From an uncultured Gemmataceae bacterium (GTDB lineage: Bacteria; Planctomycetota; Planctomycetia; Gemmatales; Gemmataceae), in the NCBI GenBank assembly GCA_963750165.1, contig CAVVPN010000011.1:800001-864000 (forward strand): a stretch of DNA of 64,000 nt. Reading direction: 5' to 3'. The stretch's first letter is position 1; each line of letters opens with the position of its first letter. Under the pieces are notes generated by a model. It saw nothing but the letters and a program-made list of their open reading frames with translations, was not told the origin of the DNA and ran no database searches. A program made the translations under genes and the position numbers. This document shows positions 570-13,772 of this stretch, piece by piece.

Positions 570-3500
570 TCACGCCAGGCTCAGCGCCAGGATTTCCACG
601 TTGCCGTTACCGGGCAACCGGATGCTCTGCACGGTTTTGCCCGCGAGCAAGCTCAGGCTGTAGCCGTACACGTGGAACGTGTGGCTGTCCCGGCCGCCGC
701 TGGCCAGGTCGCGGTAGGCCAGGTCCACGGCGTCGGACTCGCCGGCGTAGTGCTGCGGCGTGTACCAGTCACTGATGCTTTGCGTGAACGTCTGCGTGCT
801 GCCGTCGGTGTAGGTCACCACGAACGTCTGGTTCGGCTGGTTGCCGTTCACGGCGGTCGCCAGGAAGTTCAGCGTCGTGTAACTCCCTACGGGCAGGCTG
901 ATCGTCTGGCCGGCCGCGGCGATGACGTTGTTGCCGCCGGCCGCGCCCAGGGTGAACTGGGTGCCGTTCCACGTCTGGCTGGTCCCCAGCAGGTTCGCCG
1001 AGAGCGCGGCGCCGCCGCCGTCCAGGCCGCCCGTGAAGGTGCTGCCGTCATTGACGATGCCGACCCGGTTGAAGGCGCCGGCCAGGGACACCGAGCGCCC
1101 GCCCGCCGGCGAGACCGGGTCCACGAAGTTGTCGAAGCGGACGTGGCCGGTGAAGCTCGCGGGCGTCGCGGTGCGGAAGCCCGGCTTCACCGCCGACGCC
1201 GTGCCCAGTGTCGTCAGGCCCGTGATCGAGTACGACACGGGCGCCAGCACGGTCGTCCCGGTGCCGACTCCCGTCGGGCCGTAATCGACCAGCGAGAACG
1301 TGCCCGAGAAGCTGCCCGATGCCGTCTCCTTCGTGGTGAAGATCAGGTCGAGCCAGTCGCCGGCGGTGATGGTGCCAGTCGGCCGGGTGTTGTTGGTCGA
1401 GGTGGCGGGCGAGGCGCCGTTGTCGTACTGGAACTCGACGGTGTTGTTGCCGAGGATGTGCGCGGAGATGAACGAGAAGCCGGCGTTGAAGCCCGTGGAC
1501 GTCGGCGCCAGGAAGCCGACCTGCAACGGCTTGTCGCCGCTGCCCAGGCCCGAGACGGCCGTCACGTACTCCGAGAGGGTGTGGATCTGGCTGTCGGACA
1601 GGTTCACCGTTGAGGGGGTGTAGATCGCCGTGGCGTCGATGGCGACGCTGCCGCTGGACTGCACGCCGCCGCCCGCCGCGGGGCCCGGCTGGTCCTGCAC
1701 GCCGAACGCCGCGCCCCACGACAGGCTCGTGTTGTTGGCGCCGCCGTTGTTATACAACGTGAAGTTCGACGTGAAGGTACTCGCCCCGGCGTTGAAGTTG
1801 ATGTTGACCCCCGTGACGGCCGTGATCGTGAACGAACTGGATGTGGCGCCGGTCAAGGTACCGTCGCTGGCGGCCAGGGTATAGGTGCCGGCCGTGTTGA
1901 TGGCGAGGTTGCCGAACGTGGCGACGCCGTTGACGGCGGCCGCGCTCACGGTGCTGGAACCGCCGGCGAAGGTGCCGCTGCTGAGCGTCAATGTCACGGT
2001 AGAAGTGTTGCCGGGGACCGTGTTGCCGTTGGCGTCCTGCACCGCGACCGTCACCGCGGGGGTGATGGTGGCGCCGGCAGTCGCGTTGCTCGGCTGCTGG
2101 GCGAACGCCAGCCTGGCCGCGGCGCCGGCGGTGATTGCGAACGAAGTGGAGGTGACGCCGGTCAGCGTGCCGTCACTGGCGGTCAGCGTGTAACTGCCGG
2201 CGGCGTTGATGACGAGACTGCTGAAGGTGGCGACGCCATTGACCGCGGCCGCGCTCACGGTGCTGGAGCCGCCGGCGAAGGTGCCGCCGCTGAGTGTCAG
2301 CGTCACGGTGGACGTGTTGCCGGTGACGGTGTTGCCGAGGGCGTCCTGCACCGCCACCGTCACGGCGGGACTGATCGCCATGCCGGCGGCGGTGTTCGTC
2401 GGCTGCTGGGCGAACGCCAGCTTGGCCGCGGCGGCGGGGTTGATCGTGAACGGGCCGTAGCCCGGATCGAGGTTGGGGTTGGTGTCCGTGGCCCGCAGGA
2501 TGTAGCTGCCGGCGGCGTTGATGACCAGGTTGCTGAAAGTGGCCATGCCGTCCACAGCCTGGGCGCTGACGGTGGTGCTGCCGTTGGCGAAGGTGCCGTG
2601 GCTGAGCCCCGCCGTGACGGTGGACGTGTCGCCGACGAGGATGTTGGAGTTGATGTCCTCGACGGCGGCGACAAAGGCGCCCAGGGGCACCCCGGCCGTG
2701 CCGCTGCTGGGCTGTTGCAGGTACGCCAGCTTCGCGGCCGTGGAATCGACCAGGAAATTGTCGAACGCCAGGGTGCCGGTGCCGCCGCTGTTGGAGGTGC
2801 GGAAGCCCGCGTACATGGTGGCGGCGGTGCCCACGGTGGTCAGGCCGGTCACGGTGTAGGCCACCGGCGCCAGCACCAGTGTCGGCGCGGCGGTGCCGGT
2901 CGGGCCGTAGTCGAGCAACGAGAACGTGCCGTGGAAACTGCCCGAGGCAGTTTCCTGTGTGGTGAAGACCAGCTGCAGCCAGTCGCCGGTGGTGATGGTG
3001 CCCGTCGGCGTGGTGGTGTCGAGGGCGACGGCACTGGTGCCGGCTCCGTTGCCGGACTGGAACTCCACCTGGTGGTTGCCGTAGACGCGGGCCGAGATGA
3101 ACGAGAAACCCGCGTTGAACCCGGCCGTCCGCGAGGTCAGGAAGCCGATCTGCAGGGTGCGGTCGCCGGCGGGGCGAACCGGGGCGGTCACAAATTCCGA
3201 GACCGTGTGAACGGCCCCGTCCGAGAGGTTGAAGGTGGTCGGCGTGTAGACGGCCGTCTCGTCGGTGGCGGTGCCGATGATGCCGCCGCCAGCCGCGCTG
3301 CCGGCCTGGTCGTCGATGCCGGCGGTGGCGCTCCAGGTAAGGGCGGTGCCGCCTGCCACGCCGGCGAGGTTGGTGGCGAACGGTGTCGTGAAACTGCTCG
3401 CGCCGCTGTTGAAGTTGACGAAGGCGGTCGCCCCGATGGTGAACGTGTTGGACACGACGGCGGCGAGGGTGCCGTCGGAGGCGGTCAGGGTGTAGGTGCC

Positions 3501-6500
3501 GTTGTTGGCGACGGCCAAGGTCCTGAAGGTGGCCACGCCGGCCACGGCCTGGACGCTGACGGTGTTGCCGCCGCCGGTGAAGATGCCGCCGCTGCTGAGC
3601 GTCAACGTCACCGTGGACGTGTCGCCCGGCAGCACACTACCGGCGGCGTCCTCGACCGCCACGCGGACGGCCGGGCTGATGACGGTGCCGCTCGACGTGC
3701 CGCTCGGCTGCTGCAGCACGGCGAGTTTTGCCGCGGGGCCGTAATCGACGTTGATGTAGGCGGTGACGCCGGTGACGTTGTAGTCCGTGGTGTCGGTCGG
3801 CGTGAAGACGACGCCGAGGGGCTGGTGCTGTCCGGGAGCGAGCACGGTCCCGGCGGCCGGGTTGTAGGTGAAGGTGCCGGGCACGTTCGCGGTGGCGTCG
3901 AGCTGGGTCACGCTCAGAGGGGTGCCGTCGGTGATGTCGGCGGGGTTGGCCCAGGTGATGACGGGCGTGGCCGGGTCCACGTCCACGTCGGACTGGGCCG
4001 TCACGGTGTTGTAGTCGGCGGTGTCGGTCGGCGTGAACGTGACACTCAGGGGGAAGTTCTGGCCGGTGGGCGGGATGGTGCCGGCTCCCGGAGTGTAGAC
4101 GAAGCTGCCGGGGATGGTGACGCCGTTGACCGTGGCGGTGGCGTTGAGCTGGGCCGGCCCCAGGGCTTGACCGTAGGTCATGTCGGTGTCGGGACCGGTC
4201 CAGGTGATGACGGGCGTGGCCTTGACCACATTGACGAGCACCGTGGCGTTGGCCGTGGCGTAGTCAGCCGAGTCCGTCGGCGTGAACGTGACCGTGAGCG
4301 GCTGGTTCTGCCCCACGGGCAGGACGGTCCCGGCCGGCGGCGAATAGCTGAAGGTGCCGGCGAAACCCGCGTAATTGCTCACGAAGGCGTCGAGTTCAGT
4401 GCCGTCCAGGGCGGTGCCGTAGGTCAGGTTGGCGGGCGTGGCCCAGGCCAGGGTGGGCGTCGCCGGGCCGACGACGAAATCGTCGATGGAGACGGTGCCG
4501 CTAACGACCTTGACCACGATGGTGTGGCTGCCCGCCGTCAGCAGCGGACTGGTGTAGACCGGGGCGATGACCGACGTGGCAGCCGTGAGGTTGACCTGTG
4601 TCGGCGAGTTGCCGTCGATGAAGACCTGGGCGGCGCCGCCGGTCGGCGTCAGGGCGGCGTAGAGGGTGATGAGGGTGCCGGTGAACGTGACCGTGGCGGT
4701 GTCGCCGCCAGTGCTGTCGCTGGTGATGGTGCCGCCGTTGTTGTTCGGCAGGCTCGTCGGCGTCTGCACCCAGTTCGTGGTCGGGTTGGAGTAAACGACC
4801 TGCGGGATGCTGCCGGTGTTGTTGGCGTTGTTGTCGTCGATGACGGTCAGCGTGTGGGTGCCGATGGTGAACGCAAACGACGTGGCGGCGGTCAGGCCCG
4901 GGTCGGTGGCGGTGAGGGTGTAGGTACCCGGCGCGGTGATGACGAGGTTGTTGAAGCTGGCGACGCCGTTCACGGCCGCGGCGGTGGCGGTGGTGCCGCC
5001 GCCGAAGAAGGTGCCGCCGCTCAGCGTCAGCGTCACGGTGTCAGTGTTGCCCGTGGCGACGTTGCCGAAGCCGTCCTCCAGGGCCACGGCCACCGAGGGA
5101 TTGACCGCCTCACCGGCATAGGTGTTGTTCGGCTGCTGCGTGAAGACGAGCTGCGTGGCCTGGGCGACGACGTTGAACGGGTTGGACTGCACCGCGGGCA
5201 GCACGCCGTCGGTGGCGGTCAGGTTGTAGCTGCCGGTGACGTTGAGGACGAGGTTGCTAAACGTGGCCACGCCGTTGACGGCCTGGGCGCTGACGGTGGT
5301 GCTGCCGTTGGCGAAGGCGCCGTGGCTGAGCGTGAGCGTCACCAGGGAATTGTCGGTGGTGATGACGTTGCCCGCGGAATTCTCGACGGCGGCGGTGACG
5401 GCGGGACGGACCGCGACGCCGGCGACGGTCTGTGTCGGCTGCTGGGTGAAGGCGAGCCGGGTGCTGGCGGCGATGGTGAAGGGACTGGACGTGGCACTCG
5501 TTAGCAGGCCGTCCGTGGCAGTCAGCGTGTAGGTGCCGGCGGCGCTGATGAGCAGGTTGCTGAACGTGGCGACGCCGCTGGTCATCTGGGCGGTCACGGT
5601 AGTGCCGCCGCCGACGAAGGCGCCGCCGCTCAGCGTCAGCGTCACGGTGGAGGAACTGTCGGCGGTGAAGATGTTGTTGAACTGGTCCTCGGCCGAGACC
5701 ATGATCGGCGGACTCAGGGCGATGCCGGCGCTGCCGGTCGCCGGGGGCTGAGTGGTGAACACCAGCTTCGTCTCCGCCGCGGGCGGGATCGGCGTGCTGC
5801 GGCTGCCGCTCGTGTGGTCGCCGGCGGCATCGGTGATGCTCACGGTGTTGGTGACGCTGGTCGTGCCGACGGGAATGCTGGCGTTGAGATCGACGGAGAA
5901 GACCACCGACCCCGTGACGCCGGCGCCGAGACTGCCCACCGTGAAGGTGTAGGTCGAGCCGGCGCCGCCGCTGCCCGAGGTCAGCGTCCAGCCCGACGTG
6001 CTGTCGGCCAGGTCGGCGGTGGTGTTGGCCGGCACCGTCTCGGTCAGCACCACACCGGTCGCGGCCGTGCCGAGACTGTTCACGATGCTGCCGGCGTCGT
6101 TGTAGTTGATGGTGTAGGGGATGGTGCTCTGGGCCGTGGGGAGGATGTTGCCGTCGGTCAGCGACACGCCGAGCTGCGCGGCCGAGCCCGTCGTCGGCGT
6201 GATTTCCAAGCGGTCAATGGAGATGGTGTTGCTGGCGGCGTTGTTCAGGATCTCGAAGGTGTGCGTGCCGGCTCCGAGTCCCGAGACGGTGTAGACGAGC
6301 ACGTCGCCGGCGCCCATGCCGTTGGGCGAGCTGTTGGCCGGTGACAGCAACACCGACTGCGTGCTGCCGCCATCGACGGAGAAGGTCGCCGTGCCGTAGC
6401 CGCTCACCTCGTTGGCGTACACCTTGATCTGCGAACCGGTGAACGTGAGCGTGGCGTAGTCGCCCTGCACGTTGTCCGTGCTGACCGTGCCGTCGAAGGT

Positions 6501-8543
6501 GCCCATCGTGGAACTGCCGGTGATGTGCGTCCAGCCGGTGCCGACGTAGTTGAACTGGTTCATGCCGGTGCCGGTGACGGCATCATCGACGATGGTGTCG
6601 CCGGTGAGGCCGAACGCCTGGATGCTGTGTGTGCCGACGAAGACATCGCCGCGGGCAACGGCGATGCTGTTGTACTTGCCGCCCAGGCCCACCTCCTGGT
6701 AGGCGCTGCTCCAGATCGGCTGCATGGTCAGAGCGTTGTAAGCGTAGAGAACCGGGTCGCCGTTGGAAAAGCTGGTGAGGCTGTCGGTGCGCTGCACGCC
6801 GGCGTCCACCACCCAGTCGATCTCGTTGGCGGTGCCGTTGCCGGTGATGAGGTTCGAGCCGGGGTTGCTCATGACCGCCGTGTTCGAGGCCACCACCTGC
6901 AGGTAGGCGGGCTGGCCGGGACTGTGCATCACCTTCGTGAGAATCAGCGACGGGGCCACCGGCGTGCTGGAACCGACGCCCGACTTGCTGCTGCCGGCGA
7001 AGATCACGTACTGACTGCCGTCGGGCCCGGTGAAGGTCGCTGGCGTGTCGCGCGCCTTGGCGGTGTTGCCCGAGGCGCTGGACTCGTTGTAGGGGCCGAA
7101 CAGGGACAGCGGGCCGTCCTGCGCCGGGAAGCCCTGCCAGTAGGTGCGCACGCCCGTGCTGGTGGTGTCGTACAGCGATGGGTCCTGGTCCGGGGACAGA
7201 CCGCTGGGCGGCCGGGACGTGAGGCTGGCCGGGTAGGCGGCCGGGCTGCCGTTGGGGTTGGCCGTCGGGTTGTTCAGGTGGTTGCCGGCGTCGGCGAGGT
7301 AGCCGTTGCCCTGCTTGCCGCCGAAGGCCGCCAGCTCGGTGGTCGTGGACGAGCCGGCCGGCAGGTTGATGAGGATGGGCGAGCCGCCACCGAGGTCGCT
7401 GTCGATGGTGTCCTGGGTCGGGTAGTTCCACGGCGTGTAGACGCCGGTGAGCGTCAGCGTCTGACTGGGGCCGAACTCCAGCAGGGAGTTGCCCCAGTCG
7501 CCGGCCGGGTTGCCGGTGCCGCCGGGCGAGTCGCCGGTCGTGACGAAGACGTTGCCGTTGCTGTCGATGGTCGGCCCACCTGCCCCCCACATGCCGCCGT
7601 TGGCGCTGGTGGCGGTGCTATCGACCGCCGAATAAGCGCTGACGATGGCCGGCGTCTGGCCGTTGGCCGTCCCGTTGGTGACGCCGGTGGCCACGGTCGT
7701 CATCCAGCCGGGGTTGCTGGCGCCGTAGCAGGCAAAGTCCACGTAGAGCGTGCTGCCGTCCGCGCTGAGGTTCAGCCCCCCGCGCTGGTCGGCGCCGCTG
7801 GACGAGAAGGGCACCGCAATGCCCGGACCCTGCAGCGTGTTCTGGTTCAGCGAATCGAGCAGCGACTGGGTGAAGATCAGCGGCCAGCCCGAGACGAGAC
7901 TGCCGTCGTGCAGGCTCAGGGCGAAGACCTCAAAATTGTTGCCGCCGTGGTTGGGGTTGCCGGCCGCGGAGAGGTAGTCGGTCACCGACGCGGTCACGTA
8001 GAGCCGGCCGCTGGCCAGGTCGATGACCGGGGTGCTCAGGACGCCGATGCTGTTGCCGTCCACGCCGGCGTAGGGGTTGCCGAGGTGCGTCTTCCACAGG
8101 ATGGTGCCGGGGGCGATGCCGGTCGGGCCGTTGGTGTCCTGGGCCGCGATGGCGTAGACGGTGCCGCCGCCGGTGGCCGCGAAGACGACGCCCAGCGACT
8201 TGTTCTGAAACGACGCACTCTGAACGCCGTCGCCGGAGTGGTTGGCAGCGTTGCCGGGGCCGGAGATGAGTAAGCTGTCCAGGAACAGCGGCGTGGCGTA
8301 GATGGCGCCGTCGAGCTGGGGCGACTGCCAGACCTGGCCGAAGCCCGACGCCACGTTGGTCGGGGTCAGCACGGTTTCCACGGAGTTGAAGCCGGTGCGG
8401 GCGGCGTCGCCGTGGAACTCGGTGTTGCTGGGGGCGCCGGGCTGCTGCCCGAGGGTGAAGGACGGCGTCAGGCGGTCTTCCAACCGCTCCAGGTGCAGGC
8501 GTGAACGGGGGGCCTTTTGGGGGCGGGGAACGCGGCGCGGCAT
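570..8543 (-). CDS. Giant secreted multidomain protein (~2657 aa): planctomycete export motif, PQQ-like propeller, CBM-like domains, DUF11, many Ig-like repeats, MBG-like repeats
   Basis: ATG at 8543 with RBS (gagaagga); RSRLHLERLEDRLTPS; repeats KLAFxQQP...NGVATFSNLVINAAGxYTLTAxD and ATPVITWANPAD; Thr/Gly/Ser rich. Confidence 0.88.
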   Translation of the reverse strand: MPRRVPRPQKAPRSRLHLERLEDRLTPSFTLGQQPGAPSNTEFHGDAARTGFNSVETVLTPTNVASGFGQVWQSPQLDGAIYATPLFLDSLLISGPGNAANHSGDGVQSASFQNKSLGVVFAATGGGTVYAIAAQDTNGPTGIAPGTILWKTHLGNPYAGVDGNSIGVLSTPVIDLASGRLYVTASVTDYLSAAGNPNHGGNNFEVFALSLHDGSLVSGWPLIFTQSLLDSLNQNTLQGPGIAVPFSSSGADQRGGLNLSADGSTLYVDFACYGASNPGWMTTVATGVTNGTANGQTPAIVSAYSAVDSTATSANGGMWGAGGPTIDSNGNVFVTTGDSPGGTGNPAGDWGNSLLEFGPSQTLTLTGVYTPWNYPTQDTIDSDLGGGSPILINLPAGSSTTTELAAFGGKQGNGYLADAGNHLNNPTANPNGSPAAYPASLTSRPPSGLSPDQDPSLYDTTSTGVRTYWQGFPAQDGPLSLFGPYNESSASGNTAKARDTPATFTGPDGSQYVIFAGSSKSGVGSSTPVAPSLILTKVMHSPGQPAYLQVVASNTAVMSNPGSNLITGNGTANEIDWVVDAGVQRTDSLTSFSNGDPVLYAYNALTMQPIWSSAYQEVGLGGKYNSIAVARGDVFVGTHSIQAFGLTGDTIVDDAVTGTGMNQFNYVGTGWTHITGSSTMGTFDGTVSTDNVQGDYATLTFTGSQIKVYANEVSGYGTATFSVDGGSTQSVLLSPANSSPNGMGAGDVLVYTVSGLGAGTHTFEILNNAASNTISIDRLEITPTTGSAAQLGVSLTDGNILPTAQSTIPYTINYNDAGSIVNSLGTAATGVVLTETVPANTTADLADSTSGWTLTSGSGGAGSTYTFTVGSLGAGVTGSVVFSVDLNASIPVGTTSVTNTVSITDAAGDHTSGSRSTPIPPAAETKLVFTTQPPATGSAGIALSPPIMVSAEDQFNNIFTADSSSTVTLTLSGGAFVGGGTTVTAQMTSGVATFSNLLISAAGTYTLTATDGLLTSATSSPFTIAASTRLAFTQQPTQTVAGVAVRPAVTAAVENSAGNVITTDNSLVTLTLSHGAFANGSTTVSAQAVNGVATFSNLVLNVTGSYNLTATDGVLPAVQSNPFNVVAQATQLVFTQQPNNTYAGEAVNPSVAVALEDGFGNVATGNTDTVTLTLSGGTFFGGGTTATAAAVNGVASFNNLVITAPGTYTLTATDPGLTAATSFAFTIGTHTLTVIDDNNANNTGSIPQVVYSNPTTNWVQTPTSLPNNNGGTITSDSTGGDTATVTFTGTLITLYAALTPTGGAAQVFIDGNSPTQVNLTAATSVIAPVYTSPLLTAGSHTIVVKVVSGTVSIDDFVVGPATPTLAWATPANLTYGTALDGTELDAFVSNYAGFAGTFSYSPPAGTVLPVGQNQPLTVTFTPTDSADYATANATVLVNVVKATPVITWTGPDTDMTYGQALGPAQLNATATVNGVTIPGSFVYTPGAGTIPPTGQNFPLSVTFTPTDTADYNTVTAQSDVDVDPATPVITWANPADITDGTPLSVTQLDATANVPGTFTYNPAAGTVLAPGQHQPLGVVFTPTDTTDYNVTGVTAYINVDYGPAAKLAVLQQPSGTSSGTVISPAVRVAVEDAAGSVLPGDTSTVTLTLSSGGIFTGGGNTVSVQAVAGVATFRTLAVANNGTYTLTASDGTLAAVVSNTFTIGATAFVNFNSGASSFTTPFATNLAGVAGGTALTWSATAGIDDQAGSAAGGGIIGTATDETAVYTPTTFNLSDGAVHTVSEFVTAPVRPAGDRTLQIGFLTSRTAGFNAGFSFISARVYGNHQVEFQSGNGAGTSAVALDTTTPTGTITTGDWLQLVFTTQETASGSFHGTFSLLDYGPTGTAAPTLVLAPVAYTVTGLTTVGTAATMYAGFRTSNSGGTGTLAFDNFLVDSTAAKLAYLQQPSSGTAGVPLGAFVAAVEDINSNILVGDTSTVTAGLSHGTFANGSTTVSAQAVDGMATFSNLVINAAGSYILRATDTNPNLDPGYGPFTINPAAAAKLAFAQQPTNTAAGMAISPAVTVAVQDALGNTVTGNTSTVTLTLSGGTFAGGSSTVSAAAVNGVATFSSLVINAAGSYTLTASDGTLTGVTSTSFAITAGAAARLAFAQQPSNATAGATITPAVTVAVQDANGNTVPGNTSTVTLTLSSGTFAGGSSTVSAAAVNGVATFGNLAINTAGTYTLAASDGTLTGATSSSFTITAVTGVNINFNAGASTFTSNFTLYNNGGANNTSLSWGAAFGVQDQPGPAAGGGVQSSGSVAIDATAIYTPSTVNLSDSQIHTLSEYVTAVSGLGSGDKPLQVGFLAPTSTGFNAGFSFISAHILGNNTVEFQYDNGASPATSTNNTRPTGTITAGDWLDLIFTTKETASGSFSGTFSLVDYGPTGVGTGTTVLAPVSYSITGLTTLGTASAVKPGFRTATPASFTGHVRFDNFVDPVSPAGGRSVSLAGAFNRVGIVNDGSTFTGGLDGGGAALSANLLGTSQTWNGTQFTLGAAGGNNVIAAAGQTISLPVGSYTTLNFLATAVNGNQPNQTFVVTYTDGSTQTFTQSISDWYTPQHYAGESDAVDLAYRDLASGGRDSHTFHVYGYSLSLLAGKTVQSIRLPGNGNVEILALSLA

Positions 8544-8972
8544 GGGTCCTTCTCTCCGATGCAAGAGGACGGGTACCGGGGCAACGGGTTTACGGGCAAC
8601 GGGGCGACTGCGGACGACGTGAGGGGCACTGCAGGGAATCCCGCGATTAGCCCCGGACACCCACGGATACAAATTGGCGAAATAGATGTGAGAGAACGTA
8701 GCCCGCCTGGGTCGGGTGGTCAAGGAAAAAATGAAAATCCGTGGTCAGAATGCAAGCCGAAATGACTCGGGGTCTCCGAACTCGCAATCCTCAACGGGGA
8801 AATCCAGCTTCTCAGGTCTTGTCCCGCAACGTGTAGGCCGCGGCCAATAAGCGCGGCCGCTTCCCGAGAGTTCGGCTCCACAATGTCTATCGAATCTCCG
8901 AGGGGAACTGACAGTCGGGTCGTCGCCGTCCCCAGGGAAGCGCAGCATTGGCGAAAAGCGATGCCGAACGTT

Positions 8973-9046
8973 GCCGGGTCGCCCTGGGCGGTTACCCACC
9001 CAGGGCTCCCACAGATCCGGACGTGCGGAATTACCGCATCCGGCTC
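8973..9046 (-). ncRNA. Group II intron catalytic domains V and VI
   Basis: AGC triad in a 34-nt DV; DVI stem GCCCTGGGTGG-GTAA-CCGCCCAGGGC followed by the branch A at 8979. Confidence 0.9.
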
Positions 9047-9060
9047 GTCCGGCCAACGGT

Positions 9061-9886
9061 TCACACGCGCCGGTACACCGAGTGGACCACCCGTGCTGCC
9101 GGCAGCGGATACCGCTCCAGCAGTCCCCACAGGCTCGCCCAGCCGAAGCAGCCTTTCCAGCTACGCCGAGAAAGCCACTTCCGCCAGATTCGCGCCACGA
9201 TTGCTCGCACACGGTCCAACGAGGAGCAGTTCCCCGTCACCCCGTAGTAGACGTCGTGGCCGCGTAGCTTCTGGCTCAGTGTCGCGTGCTGCTCCTGGAT
9301 CGGTCGGTGCCGGTTGCGCCGACACCATTCCCCTATCGCTTTCGCGAACCGGCGGATTCGGCTGGCTGCCGTCCGTTTCTTGACTGCCGCGTTGTTCTTC
9401 CTCGACTTCCCCCAATAATGGGTGAACCCCAGGAAGTCAAACGTCCGCAGTTGGTTGCCCCCCTGCGGTCCCTCTTGTCCTTTCTGCTCCCGGGGCCGCG
9501 CGAACGGCACCAGTCGCGTCTTGTCCGGGTGGATCGACAGCCCGTACTTGCCGAAACGCTTCGGCAGCACCTCCATCACTCGTCGTGCGTCTGACTCATC
9601 GGTGAACCCGATTACGAAGTCGTCGGCGTAACGGATCAGGAAGGTTCGGCCCAAAAGACGTGGCTTAACCACTTCTTCCCACCAGACGTCCAGCACGTAG
9701 TGCAGATAGACGTTGGAAAGCAAAGGAGAGATCACCCCGCCCTGGGGGGAGCCTGTCGAGGGATACGTCACTGCACCCCCCTCCATCACTCCCGCGGAAA
9801 GCCATTTGCCGATCAGTCGTAGCGCTACCCCGTCACGTACCCTTTGCCTGAGCAGTTCCCGCAAGTGGGCATGATCCAGCGTGTCA
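9061..9886 (-). pseudogene. ltrA: Group II intron RT/maturase, C-terminal part (no endonuclease domain)
   Basis: DTLDHAHLRELL, GSPQGGVISPLLSNVYLH, RYADDF, FDFLGF, thumb/X domain. Confidence 0.92.
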
Positions 9887-9887
9887 A

Positions 9888-10226
9888 ACGACCTACCAAC
9901 ATGATGCCCCCTTCGAGCACCCGCCTGAGGAGCCTGAAGAGGTCGAGGTGACCGACCCGACCCACCCGCTGTTCGGGCGGCGTTTCCGTGTCGTGTCCAT
10001 CAGCCATCCGCCGCGACGCCCCGGCCAGGTCACCGTGGCCTACCGGCAGGGGATGCGTCTGCGCATCCCCGTCCTGGCCACTAACCTGGTCCCTGGCACT
10101 GCTGCGTCGCCTCGCAGTAAGCTCACCAGAGTAGCCCTGCTCGATCTCCTCGCTCTGGTGAAGGAGTGCGAAGCCTCATGTCCCGTTCCCCCCGGCGCGT
10201 CTGGTCCGGACTCTCCGATGGCCTGA
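9888..10226 (+). CDS. Small Y4bD/DUF5372-like protein; full-length start only formed in the circular element (internal GTG at 9948)
   Basis: VEVTDPTHPLFGRRF motif; frame open back to the left junction. Confidence 0.7.
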   Translation, partial: TTYQHDAPFEHPPEEPEEVEVTDPTHPLFGRRFRVVSISHPPRRPGQVTVAYRQGMRLRIPVLATNLVPGTAASPRSKLTRVALLDLLALVKECEASCPVPPGASGPDSPMA

Positions 10227-10393
10227 AAAAACAGGTCATTGGCGATCTTCTTTCTGTCTTCAAGGAGGTACTCCATGAGCTTGCCCGAAACCATTCAACC
10301 CACCCACCTGGATCGCCTGGCCGTCGTCTACGTCCGCCAGTCCAGCCCCCACCAGGCCCTTGCCAATCAGGAGAGTCTCAAACTCCAGTATGA
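10178..10393 (+). CDS. Small hypothetical protein of the LSR element, overlapping both neighbours
   Basis: ATG at 10178 after gaaggag; VWSGLSDGLKKQVIGDLLSVFKEVLHE helix. Confidence 0.5.
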   Translation: MSRSPRRVWSGLSDGLKKQVIGDLLSVFKEVLHELARNHSTHPPGSPGRRLRPPVQPPPGPCQSGESQTPV

Positions 10394-12343
10394 TCTGCGC
10401 CACAAGGCCCAGGCTGCCGGCTGGGACCCTGGCCGGATCCGGGTCATCGACACCGAGCTGGGCCGCACCGGCCGCTCCGCCACAGGACGCGCCGGCTTCC
10501 AGGAGCTGGTCACCCTGGTCAACCAGGAGCAGGTCGGCATCATCTTCGCCTACGACGTCACTCGCCTGGCCCGCAACTGCACCGACTGGTATCAGCTCCT
10601 CGACCTGTGCGGCTGGCGGCACTGTCTGGTCGGCGATCAGGACGGCATATACGACTCTACCACTCCCAATGGCAGACTTATCCTGGGACTCAAGGGCTTG
10701 ATCTCCGAACTGGAGCTGCACACCTTGCGGGCCCGCCTGACCGCCGGCCTGCTCAACAAAGCCCAGCGCGGTGAGCTGGCCAAACCGCTACCCATCGGAT
10801 TAATTCGCGACCCGCTGGGGCGGGTGCTCAAGCATCCCGACCAGGAGGTCCAGGGCCGGCTGGACCTGGTCTTCGCCACCTTCCTGCAGCTCCGAGCCGC
10901 CTGCCGGGTGGTCCGCCACTTCAACGGCCATGAGTTGCTGTTGCCGCGGCGAGATCGCTTTGGCGATCTGGTTTGGCGGCAACCGACGGTCCCGGCCATT
11001 CTGTCCATCCTGAAGAACCCCGCCTACGCCGGCGCGTTTGTCTACGGCCGGACCCGGACGGTGCCCAGGGCCGTGCGCCTCACGAGCGGACCCAGAAAAC
11101 GCTGCCGATGGACGAGTGGAAAATCCGCATCCCTGACAAGTATCCGGCCTACATTGATTGGCCGACGTTTGAGACAATCCAGGGTATGATCCGCGACAAC
11201 CACTCTGAGTATGATCGCAACCAGACCCGGGGTGTGCCTCGCCCCGGCAAGGCGCTGCTGCACGGCATCGTCTGCTGTGGCGAGTGTGGCCACCGGATGG
11301 TGGTGCAGTACAAGAAGGGGACCCGCTACCTCTGTAACTATCTGCGTCAGCACTGGCAGGTGCCGGTCTGTCAGAACCTGCCGGCCGACTCCATCGATGA
11401 CTGGGTCGTTGGGACCTTTTTCGATGTGCTTTCTCCGGCGGAACTGGATCTGTACAGCCAGGCCGTGGCGGCGTTACAGCAGGACGATGACCAGGTGCGG
11501 CAGGCACAGCGGCAACAGCTCGAACGGCTCCGCTACCAGGCGCGGCTGGCCGAGCGGCAGTACAACCAGGCCGACTCGGACAACCGGCTGGTGGCCGCCG
11601 AACTGGAGCGGCGCTGGGAGGCGGCACTGCGGGAACTGAAGGACGCGGAAGAGAAGTTCCAGCAGCAGCAACAACAGCCGCGGCTGGCCGAAGCGTTGAC
11701 TGCGGCAGAGAGGGAAGCGTTCCTGCAGGCCGGCAAGAAAATCCCCCAGTTGTGGCAACAGGGCCGGTTGTCGCAGCAGCAGAAGAAGGCGTTCCTGCAC
11801 TGCCTGATCGACAAGGTGGTCGTCCACCGCTCCGCTCCAGATACTATTCAGGTGCGTATTGTTTGGAGAGGTGGCGAGGCGACGGCCAAGGCGCTGACGG
11901 TGACGGTGGGCTCGCTGGCGCGGCGGTCGGGGTCGGCGGAGATGGAAAAGAAGATCCTCGAAATGGTCAAAGAGAACAAGAGCGATGAAGAGATTGCCAC
12001 TCTGTTGACCCGAGAAGGGCATCGTTCGCCGAAGCACGACGCCGTGCTGGTCAGCACGGTGCGAACCATCCGCCTGCGCCACCGCCTGTTCCGCAAGCGT
12101 AGCCAGTCCCACCCGCGCCACATCCCCGGCCACCTGACCATCCCGGAACTTGCGGACCGCCTGCGCCTCAAGCCAGGCTGGCTCTACCACCAGATTCACA
12201 ACGGCACGATCCAGGTCGCGCGCGACGCGGAAACGAACCTCTACCTGTTCCCCGACCACCCCAGTACCATCGCCCGGTTCGAGCAACTCCGGGCTGGCAA
12301 GATCCAGAAGTTGCGTTTTTATGGAGGGTATCAAGATGCGTGA
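10275..12343 (+). CDS. Large serine recombinase (resolvase + recombinase + Zn ribbon + coiled coil + C-terminal HTH); apparent frameshift near 11070
   Basis: RBS aaggagg; YVRQSS catalytic motif, DVTRLARN, ILKNPAYAG, CGECG...C...C; split over ORFs 10239-11189 and 10973-12343. Confidence 0.9.
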
Positions 12344-12346
12344 TCG

Positions 12347-12864
12347 AAGAATTTGCGGATGTCCACTTCCAAGACCCAGCCGCCCCCGTTCTTCATCAAG
12401 TGCTGCCGTAGGTCTTCCAGAGCCTGGTGTGCCGATCGGCCTGGCCGAAACCCGTACGAGCAGGGCTTGAAGTCCTGCTCATAGATCGGTTGCAGTAGCA
12501 GGACGATCGCCCGCTGGAGGACCTTGTCCTCCAGCGTTGGTATCCCGATCGGCCGGGTCTCAGCAGACCCGGGTCCTTTCGCGATATGCACCCGTCGCAC
12601 CGGCGGTGCCCGGTAGGAGCCGGACTTGGCCCGTTCCAGAAGCGAACGCAGATTGGCAGTCAGGTCCGCTTCGTAGTCCGCGGCGGTGATCCCGTCCACA
12701 CCAGAAGCACCATCCCGGCGCGTGCTCCAGTAGGCCACGAGCAACCAGGTGAAGTCGAGGTGGTGGTTCAGGGAAGCGAATCCCATTTGCGGGGCTTGCC
12801 GCGCAAGCTCCGCTATCCGCCGTTGTCGCGTTGACACGGGATCGGCTCCTGGAATAGCCGCCAT
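12347..12864 (-). pseudogene. ltrA: Group II intron RT/maturase, N-terminal part
   Basis: GASGVDG, YRAPPVRRVHIAK, RPIGIPTLEDKVLQRA, SYGFRPGRSAHQAL, WVLEVDIRKFF; RBS ggaggg. Confidence 0.92.
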
Positions 12865-13772
12865 GTTTCCCTCCAGCGGATCGTTGACCAGAGGCCCCCT
12901 TCCCTGTCCAGGCTCCGGGCCGGGGTAGCCCGTTCGCCTGACGTAGCGGTACTATGAGGCCTTCCGACTCCTGCCTGCCCATCGGCCCAAGCTCATTGGG
13001 TTCGCCGAGGACCTACCGCCGTGTGCCAGCGATGAGTTCGCTCCCTTCGCGGCTCGCTGGCAACCGCGGGGCCCGGGCACCTTGAATCGGCTGACCCGCA
13101 CAGCCGAGAGTAACGGCGGGAACAGACAGGCCTCCCAGGTTCCTGGGGAACCCCAAGGTGGCCGCGCCGACTTCTAAAGACCCCGGCGGGACCGCCCCCC
13201 AGGCCAGTACAGGAGAGCAGGCGCGGCCACCACATGCGCGCACGGCAGGGGCTCCCGCGAAGAGACCTAATTTCGGGGCTGAATGGGCCGGCTCGGGACA
13301 CAGGCTGTCTACGCTTCGCCCGCCAGGTCGCCCTGGAGGACGCAAGACTCGCTTCCGGCTGTTGGCCAGACTCTACCGGGTGGGCTCGATGACCCACTGG
13401 GTTCCACCGAAAGGTTTTGAGCTGTTTCCTACATCTCTCCTCCTTCCCCAGGCTTTCCCTGGCGCAGCGCGCTTCGGTCCGCCCCACCGAAGTGAGTTCG
13501 TGTCGAAGCGTTCGACGCGGAGGTCACATCGGCCGCTGGATCGACCAAGCGGGCACAGTCCGTGAGCACCCCGCAGCGCCAGTGCCCGCGGGTAGGCGCC
13601 CGCCACCTTCGTCTTCGGCGTTCGTAACCGAGCGCTGGCGTTGCGGCGCGTCTGCCGACCGTGTCCCGTGTTCATTTTCCCTTCAGCATCGGTCTCAGGC
13701 TTGACCCGCCCGGCAGCCGGCGGTAGCTGTGAAGGCGCCCACCGGGTGACGGGGATTCGGCGTCGCGGCACG

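Follow-up and report, generated by a model that had tools for sequence, protein, structure and literature searches.

A DUF5372 gene of an IS-like serine-recombinase element that appears to be completed only when the element ends are joined

The large serine recombinase (LSR) TnpX moves the small elements Tn4451 and Tn4453 through a circular form, and Lyras and Rood reportedly found in 2000 that the circle junction makes a promoter for the recombinase, which turns expression on. In the 'suicidal' tyrosine integrases of the SSV type (SSV1, pTN3 and pT26-2), the attachment (att) site lies within one of the element's genes, which integration splits and which is whole only when the element is free (PMC8371274), and in mycobacteriophage BPs attP lies in repressor gene 33, so that the recombination state sets the product of an element gene (PMC4557955). 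Here we describe an insertion sequence (IS)-like LSR element at positions 9887..12348 (plus strand, 2,462 bp) of a 64,000-nt stretch of DNA from an uncultured Gemmataceae bacterium (contig CAVVPN010000011.1, positions 800,001 to 864,000; hereafter the window, to which all coordinates refer). The element is filled by three overlapping genes, ORF1 (DUF5372), ORF2 and the recombinase, and contains no mobilisation or cargo genes. ORF1 appears to receive its Shine-Dalgarno (SD) sequence, its ATG and its first four codons only when the two ends of the element are joined.

Each of the known systems differs from this layout. In the archaeal elements the split gene is the tyrosine integrase, whereas here the serine recombinase is unsplit, and what is cut off is only the SD, ATG and first four to five codons of an accessory gene. 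In BPs it is the C-terminus that changes, with both forms of the protein being made; the present gene loses its start, its modelled fold is SH3/KOW-like and not repressor-like, and the carrier is an IS-sized parasite. The junction of Tn4451/Tn4453 reportedly supplies a promoter, whereas the junction described here supplies a reading frame for a predicted cofactor, in an element with fixed-codon targets; TnpX itself needs no recombination directionality factor (RDF) or other cofactor (PMC5704250). The RDFs of large serine integrases, such as those of SPbeta and Nm60, resemble ORF1 in being small proteins placed on DBD2 and the coiled-coil hinge, in systems with the same 5-bp difference between attP and attB (PMC11722253, PMC12286644). 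However, their genes are intact when integrated and they favour excision, whereas ORF1 is whole only on the attP form. The original prediction for this DNA had suggested that such self-assembly of an accessory gene was new. This holds in part: an att site inside an element's own gene is known (PMC8371274, PMC4557955), but a start codon of an accessory gene supplied across attP, which sets the element apart from SSV integrases, BPs and TnpX, was not found in the literature. Our literature search, which took in Durrant et al. 2022 with its supplements, found neither the split-gene layout nor the targets described (subscription journals, ISfinder and bioRxiv supplements were outside it, and long tables were possibly incomplete), and it gave no mention of DUF5372, Y4bD or Y4pK in this sense.

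An element of plasmid pNGR234a (NC_000914.2, 33.9-37.3 kb) has the same order of genes, with DUF5372 first and the recombinase last (49% and 29% identity), an in-frame junction and an insertion in a transposase gene. It differs in its size (3.3 kb), its TT core, its target and its middle genes, a helix-turn-helix (HTH) gene and another small gene standing in place of ORF2; a profile of ORF2 matched none of three pNGR234a proteins. We take the genes of this element to be those named y4bA-y4bD.

Joining the ends of our element at the AA dinucleotides that bound it (9887-9888 and 12347-12348) brings the head of ORF1 (12323..12348, plus strand) in front of its body (9889..10226, plus strand). The head consists of GGAGG (12323-12327), 8 nt, ATG (12336-12338) and the first four codons, and the joined frame encodes 116 aa and ends at 10226. 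The ATG overlaps the stop region of the recombinase, whose TGA lies at 12341-12343. In the integrated state the same ATG reads 44 codons antisense to the host gene, which encodes a group II intron reverse transcriptase (RT), and the body extends upstream to a stop 35 nt before the core, the flank offering no start in its frame. All coordinates of the original prediction hold, as do its statements that the integrated frame lacks a start and that the ATG runs into antisense RT. It had further noted that the join stays in frame with a TC core; the TC register does keep both frames, though the core itself is AA. The ORF1 body matches DUF5372 in Pfam with an E-value of 4.7e-05 and 23.8 bits, slightly under the 25-bit cut-off.

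The junction frame is conserved among relatives. We kept 80 of 165 relatives in GTDB genomes, and 21 of these without one end were left uncounted. The frame is open in 58 of the 59 loci with both ends: 54 of 54 whose ends were called with a pattern that does not include the ATG, and four of five joined by hand. These sequences fall into 19 attP types (<85% identity), all of which have the ATG in frame and no stop, while the other two junction frames contain stops in 17 and 18 of the 19 types, partly due to the att motif itself. The start of ORF1 lies at -14, -11 or -8 from the core, so that it moves by whole codons only, and the spacer between core and domain measures 56, 62, 65, 71 or 74 nt among 73 called left ends, which all share one frame. 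In 12 of the 19 types the recombinase stop precedes the SD, and both SD and ATG are then outside the recombinase gene; its coding sequence therefore cannot hold the ATG in place. The linker upstream of any internal start also varies as a coding sequence does, with pairwise differences of 0.53, 0.37 and 0.58 at codon positions 1, 2 and 3 (16 sequences). Finally, the start codon is not simply a copy of the other arm, where the full triplet CAT occurs in 0/19 types and the A of ATG is mirrored in 3/19. Judged by these sequences, the frame is conserved and not due to chance, and the circle-only ORF1 gene is real and conserved. This supports the proposed recombination-state switch on two of the points by which it was to be checked: the frame across homologues is consistent rather than random, and no internal start, including GTG 9948, is conserved.

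The same frame was observed in out-groups, the recombinases of the most distant sharing about 30% identity. Of a set of 15 loci, 10 were joined, three had no called end in the locus and two belonged to another family. Plasmid elements sited in tnpB were in frame in 4/4 cases, and among six further plasmid loci four were called, again all in frame. A 2.74-kb family with a GG core was in frame in all 10 copies from three genomes, and its SD lies well past the recombinase stop. Three 3.4-kb loci in transposase genes, with about 30% identity in the C-terminal half, were also in frame, and so was the element of pNGR234a, where restoration of the host gene was the only basis for calling the ends.

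The joined ends form a symmetric attP, made of an outer motif, 14 bp, AA, 14 bp and a second outer motif. In the integrated copy, attL (9865..9910, outer limit approximate) comprises the host B half-site, the AA core, a 14-bp arm and the outer motif GATGCCCC at 9903-9910, the predicted site of the zinc-ribbon domain; this geometry is kept in the 19 attP types. Junction and motif analysis places attR at 12323..12364, with the outer motif and SD at 12323-12332, a 14-bp arm, the core and a host half-site with GATGTCC at offset 9. The ribosome-binding site of the junction thus doubles as the outer motif of an att arm. The score of this motif peaks at offset 9 in 45 distinct attB targets (in one attB arm only) and at offset 14 in the 19 element arms. 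A 5-bp motif shift of this kind separates attB from attP in serine integrases (PMC3783163), and the att system is of the serine-integrase type, with a 2-bp core to which the motif lies 5 bp closer in attB than in attP. Where one element has copies in differing targets, the base 5' of AA on the left and the base 3' of AA on the right vary with the target, so the core is AA, and this comparison led us to reject the TC core.

At several loci (L076, L047, L055, L056, L109 and L112) the left and right core dinucleotides differ (TA/TT, TA/CA, TT/CT or CA/CT) or are TT, often in reversed orientation. The ORF1 frame stays open across all the mismatched or TT cores tried at these loci. The mismatched cores suggest integration through mismatch and core switching.

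One natural protein, P0010, begins with MRDRTTQQHDA, which corresponds to the junction N-terminus. It is the sole record of this kind, and a search with the N-terminal region returned P0010 itself only. It is encoded on just one Logan contig, whose 2,494 nt are about the length of one element and would fit a circle. Of the circle junctions that had been called for, our scans gave this one protein record and no DNA. Plasmid matches that apparently covered the ORF1 N-terminus as tandem copies were rejected, as they proved to be insertions in other recombinase or IS genes.

We modelled ORF1 with AlphaFold2 from 60 sequences, using the homolog P0010. The model has a mean predicted local distance difference test (pLDDT) score of 80.6 and shows four strands and a helix; the first 20 residues are of lower confidence and without secondary structure. 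The body would thus consist of a disordered N-terminal linker, an SH3/KOW-like barrel and a C-terminal helix. Fold searches returned KOW, SH3 and Tudor barrels (VIA Z up to 5.4), Foldseek gave nothing at E <= 0.001, and the Atlas gave DUF5372 clusters. The modelled barrel is a common small fold and is no pointer to function.

When the recombinase of the relative L014 was modelled with its own ORF1, the interface score (ipSAE) was 0.66, against 0.00 for the best control. The mark of this test is reached by 116 of 157 solved pairs and by 2 of 215 mismatched pairs, rates that are a rough guide, our own alignments having been used here. The runs agreed in at least 90% of contacts and the partner pLDDT was at least 67. 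The predicted contacts fall on recombinase residues 334-340, 385-401 and 472-536, that is, the zinc ribbon, the coiled-coil base and the part of DBD2 after the coil, and are made by the helix and the H-P-L loop of ORF1. The PDB searched by sequence contains no homolog of ORF1, homologs of the recombinase for the catalytic domain only and no like complex, so it is unlikely that the score reflects a memorised complex. ORF1 is thus predicted to bind the zinc-ribbon/coiled-coil hinge of its recombinase. RDFs bind the DBD2/coiled-coil hinge (PMC11722253, PMC12286644), and in this respect the model agrees with the earlier guess that the circle-only protein might be a directionality factor.

ORF2 (10178..10393, plus strand) overlaps the end of ORF1 and the start of the recombinase. 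It has its own SD (AAGGAG) and a conserved part of about 34 aa, amphipathic judging from its sequence, and it matches nothing in Pfam, NCBIfam or the Atlas. Its ATG lies at -97 or -94 from that of the recombinase in 18/19 types, and ORF2 is a candidate excision factor. At the other end of the element, 18/19 types have the recombinase stop at position -26/-27, -13 or -6 relative to the core, which makes the proposed translational coupling of ORF1 to the recombinase plausible. In the window, a predicted RNA hairpin between the att arms pairs the SD (-16.7 kcal/mol); it is weaker in some homologs. A second hairpin, over the ORF1 stop (10215-10242), had been considered as an attenuator and was rejected, the hairpin being unconserved in the 19 types.

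We propose that ORF1 is a circle-only cofactor favouring integration and that ORF2 is a candidate excision factor, with a probability of about 0.5. The recombinase would excise the element, perhaps aided by ORF2, whose own SD is retained in the integrated state. Once a circle has formed, ribosomes that reach the end of the recombinase gene would re-initiate at the junction ATG; the junction SD would otherwise be paired with the other att arm in the RNA, making ORF1 dependent on these ribosomes. ORF1 would then dock on the zinc-ribbon domain and the coiled-coil base and favour attP x attB recombination, and integration would split the gene again and switch the cofactor off. We infer this direction because a non-replicating circle must re-insert and because a gene that even distant relatives keep whole on the circle alone would most simply serve this step. 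A stronger version, in which DUF5372 is a 'reverse RDF' made only from the attP circle that promotes integration and overrides an excision driven by ORF2, as the design of a broad family of IS-like elements with conserved codons of intron RTs, IS66 tnpB, IS transposases and rival recombinase genes as targets, is put forward more tentatively.

Several observations weigh against this proposal. With a canonical att geometry, the recombinase alone should by precedent be able to integrate. Factors described at the hinge in the papers cited here favour excision, and fusion of an RDF inhibits attP x attB (PMC12286644). The internal GTG lies upstream of every residue in the predicted contact. Part of the conservation would be due to DNA recognition, because the SD doubles as an att motif and because 12-14 of 19 left arms mirror the TG of the ATG. 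Among the loci joined by hand, L046 is out of frame (9 aa), and L002 has no ATG in its arm; L134, L135, L129/L116 and L002 were left unresolved, L129/L116 being an exception with no called ends. The end-caller used a fixed 14-bp arm spacing, several of the out-group patterns included the ATG, and the relatives are not mutually independent. The contig of P0010 could also be a head-to-tail dimer. Junction DNA was absent from viral contigs (0 matches), from JGI metagenomes (0 strict matches and 15 loose ones, none homologous) and from five multi-copy genomes (0/5), and two distantly related Logan runs, sharing 5% of words, contained no end-joining joint.

A first alternative is that ORF1 acts as a classical RDF. 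A rare spontaneous circle would make ORF1, the circle would be kept out of the vacated site, and sibling copies would be excised in trans by positive feedback. The predicted contact is indeed the canonical RDF site (PMC11722253) and the 5-bp shift is canonical (PMC3783163); no fold is common to RDFs (PMC11795197), which leaves room for an SH3-like one, and multi-copy genomes do exist. However, the ORF1 gene is split exactly when excision is needed, ORF2 offers an alternative excision factor that is intact when integrated, and a non-replicating circle that blocked its own integration would presumably be diluted out. We consider this alternative unlikely, though it should be kept in mind.

Another possibility is that ORF1 serves mainly as a translational coupler, a closed loop of three overlapping genes on the circle boosting ORF2 and the recombinase, with the protein itself mattering little; this would be a counterpart, at the level of translation, of the promoters formed at circle junctions. 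The overlaps of ORF1, ORF2 and the recombinase start in 18/19 types and the recombinase stop abutting the junction SD would suit such a loop, as would the finding of no sigma-70-like promoter in the integrated region 9600-12600 (by a consensus scan that may not suit this host). But the predicted barrel of ORF1 is retained, some of its residues are invariant, and the protein passes the complex test; ORF2 and the recombinase have SDs of their own, and no consistent occluding structure is present. We regard a mere coupler as clearly unlikely. The weakest alternative is very unlikely: a working protein of 92 aa starting at GTG 9948 and made in both states, with the junction ATG as a by-product of the att arm, would have a usable GAGG upstream, would include all the predicted contacts and would agree with the many database homologs called from the equivalent codon and with the partial mirroring of the SD and TG in the other arm, but 12 of 19 types have no internal ATG, GTG or TTG, the other seven have one at several different codons (the 9948 GTG in 4/19), the modelled barrel would lose part of strand 1 (E23-26), starts and spacers shift by whole codons, and the database starts are choices of gene callers.

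It is an open question how transposable elements with serine recombinases achieve excision as well as re-insertion, the cofactors described in the papers cited here favouring excision. With DUF5372, the integration-cofactor proposal puts a name to a candidate; it also gives a predicted site of binding and a genetic logic built into the element, and carriers are in culture (Sinorhizobium fredii NGR234 and S. meliloti). If the 'reverse RDF' version is true, a parasite of three genes would read its own topology and flip the direction of recombination without a regulator. The split gene also gives a lead on the function of a Pfam DUF and accounts for the inconsistent internal starts called in databases. 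The compact recombinases, their relaxed, codon-shaped attB motifs and the possible direction switch could be useful for genome engineering, and the element is a parasite able to turn its target genes, group II intron RTs and those of ISs, off and on again.

The recombinase (10275..12343, plus strand) has the features of an LSR: a Y-x-R-x-S motif (YVRQS) in its resolvase domain, a recombinase domain, a zinc ribbon with four Cys, a long coiled coil (residues 388-466) and C-terminal HTHs. Intact homologs measure 680-700 aa. In the window the gene is broken into two frames by a 1-bp loss near 11066-11073; at 11073 a related contig is longer by one base. Because of this frameshift, the copy is likely inactive in cis, as either a dead or a mis-assembled copy. 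The source genome gave one blastn match to the element, a single copy, and no second intact copy was found in it. Elsewhere in the genome we observed another RT gene (38% identity) and a distant recombinase fragment (33%), at G000:C11:1754842-1755465 and 1857956-1858402. The C-terminal HTH modules of the recombinase (12130-12300; residues 554-673 of the L014 protein) weakly match excisionase families (HTH_17, E 0.0087; TIGR01764, E 0.051) and are a possible built-in regulator or excision aid.

The element lies antisense within the gene of a group II intron RT/maturase. In-silico removal restores an intact RT of 447 aa, continuous through K-F-F-D-T-L-D. The 5' part of this gene, up to ...DIRKF, spans 12349..12864 (minus strand; RVT_1 and TIGR04416), and the 3' part, from FDTLD... 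to the stop, spans 9061..9888 (minus strand; domain matches and the restored frame). RNA domains D1-D4 of the host intron were found at 13170..13388 (minus strand; Rfam RF02005, 98.1 bits; 5' end unmapped). Hairpins resembling D5/D6, which mark its approximate 3' end, lie at 8970..9046 (minus strand) according to RNAfold, with an Rfam score below gathering.

Relatives of the element are mostly 2,456-2,470 bp long and often multi-copy, in hosts that include Planctomycetota, Chloroflexota, Cyanobacteria, Verrucomicrobia and Pseudomonadota. We surveyed the targets of 55 elements with both ends called, including that of the window. Insertion is antisense at one codon of intron RTs, D-x-x-x-[FYC]|F-D, in 41 of them; one, with mismatched cores, has the opposite orientation in an RT, four are in tnpB of IS66 (D-M-R-K-[SG]|F-[DN]) and nine are elsewhere, eight of these in one genome. 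Other fixed codons among relatives are the C-terminal L-E-G-I-D of tnpB, Y-D-P of other recombinase genes, R-P-L-G-[IM]-P of RTs and K-[GA]-[KR]-V-E of IS transposases. Multi-copy genomes contain near-identical copies in different targets, a sequence pattern that points to recent movement. Six family members (L055, L056, L132, L133, L136 and L137) lie in Y-D-P codons of other LSR genes, including those of DUF5372-type elements of symbiotic plasmids; insertion in sister recombinase genes is a case of parasite on parasite within one family. At five loci (L033, L036, L039, L081 and L092), a second, distantly related recombinase element lies in or beside the same intron RT, the joined ones at R-P-L-G-[IM]-P, giving two parasites per gene.

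In L024, L025, L026 and L065 (one genome) and in L033 and L036, the left and right flanks belong to two different RT genes and are paired reciprocally. Copies seem to recombine with one another in such a way that the N-terminal half of one intron RT is combined with the C-terminal half of another, and chimeric RTs would be left behind by excision; the alternative is mis-assembly. In L022, L023, L027 (2624-7141), L032, L034 and L037, an intron with its element, about 4.5-4.9 kb in all, is common to different loci with 90-99% identity, and an element-bearing intron moved in trans may be a route to copy gain. A metagenome-assembled genome of Bdellovibrionales has nine copies (L069-L077, L087) in a non-RT target, mostly sharing a 4.6-kb unit around the element, which is possibly a composite transposon carrying it. 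In the window, a minus-strand ORF of 2,717 aa with Ig-like repeats (570-8723), by eye a surface protein of planctomycete type, lies just downstream of the host intron.

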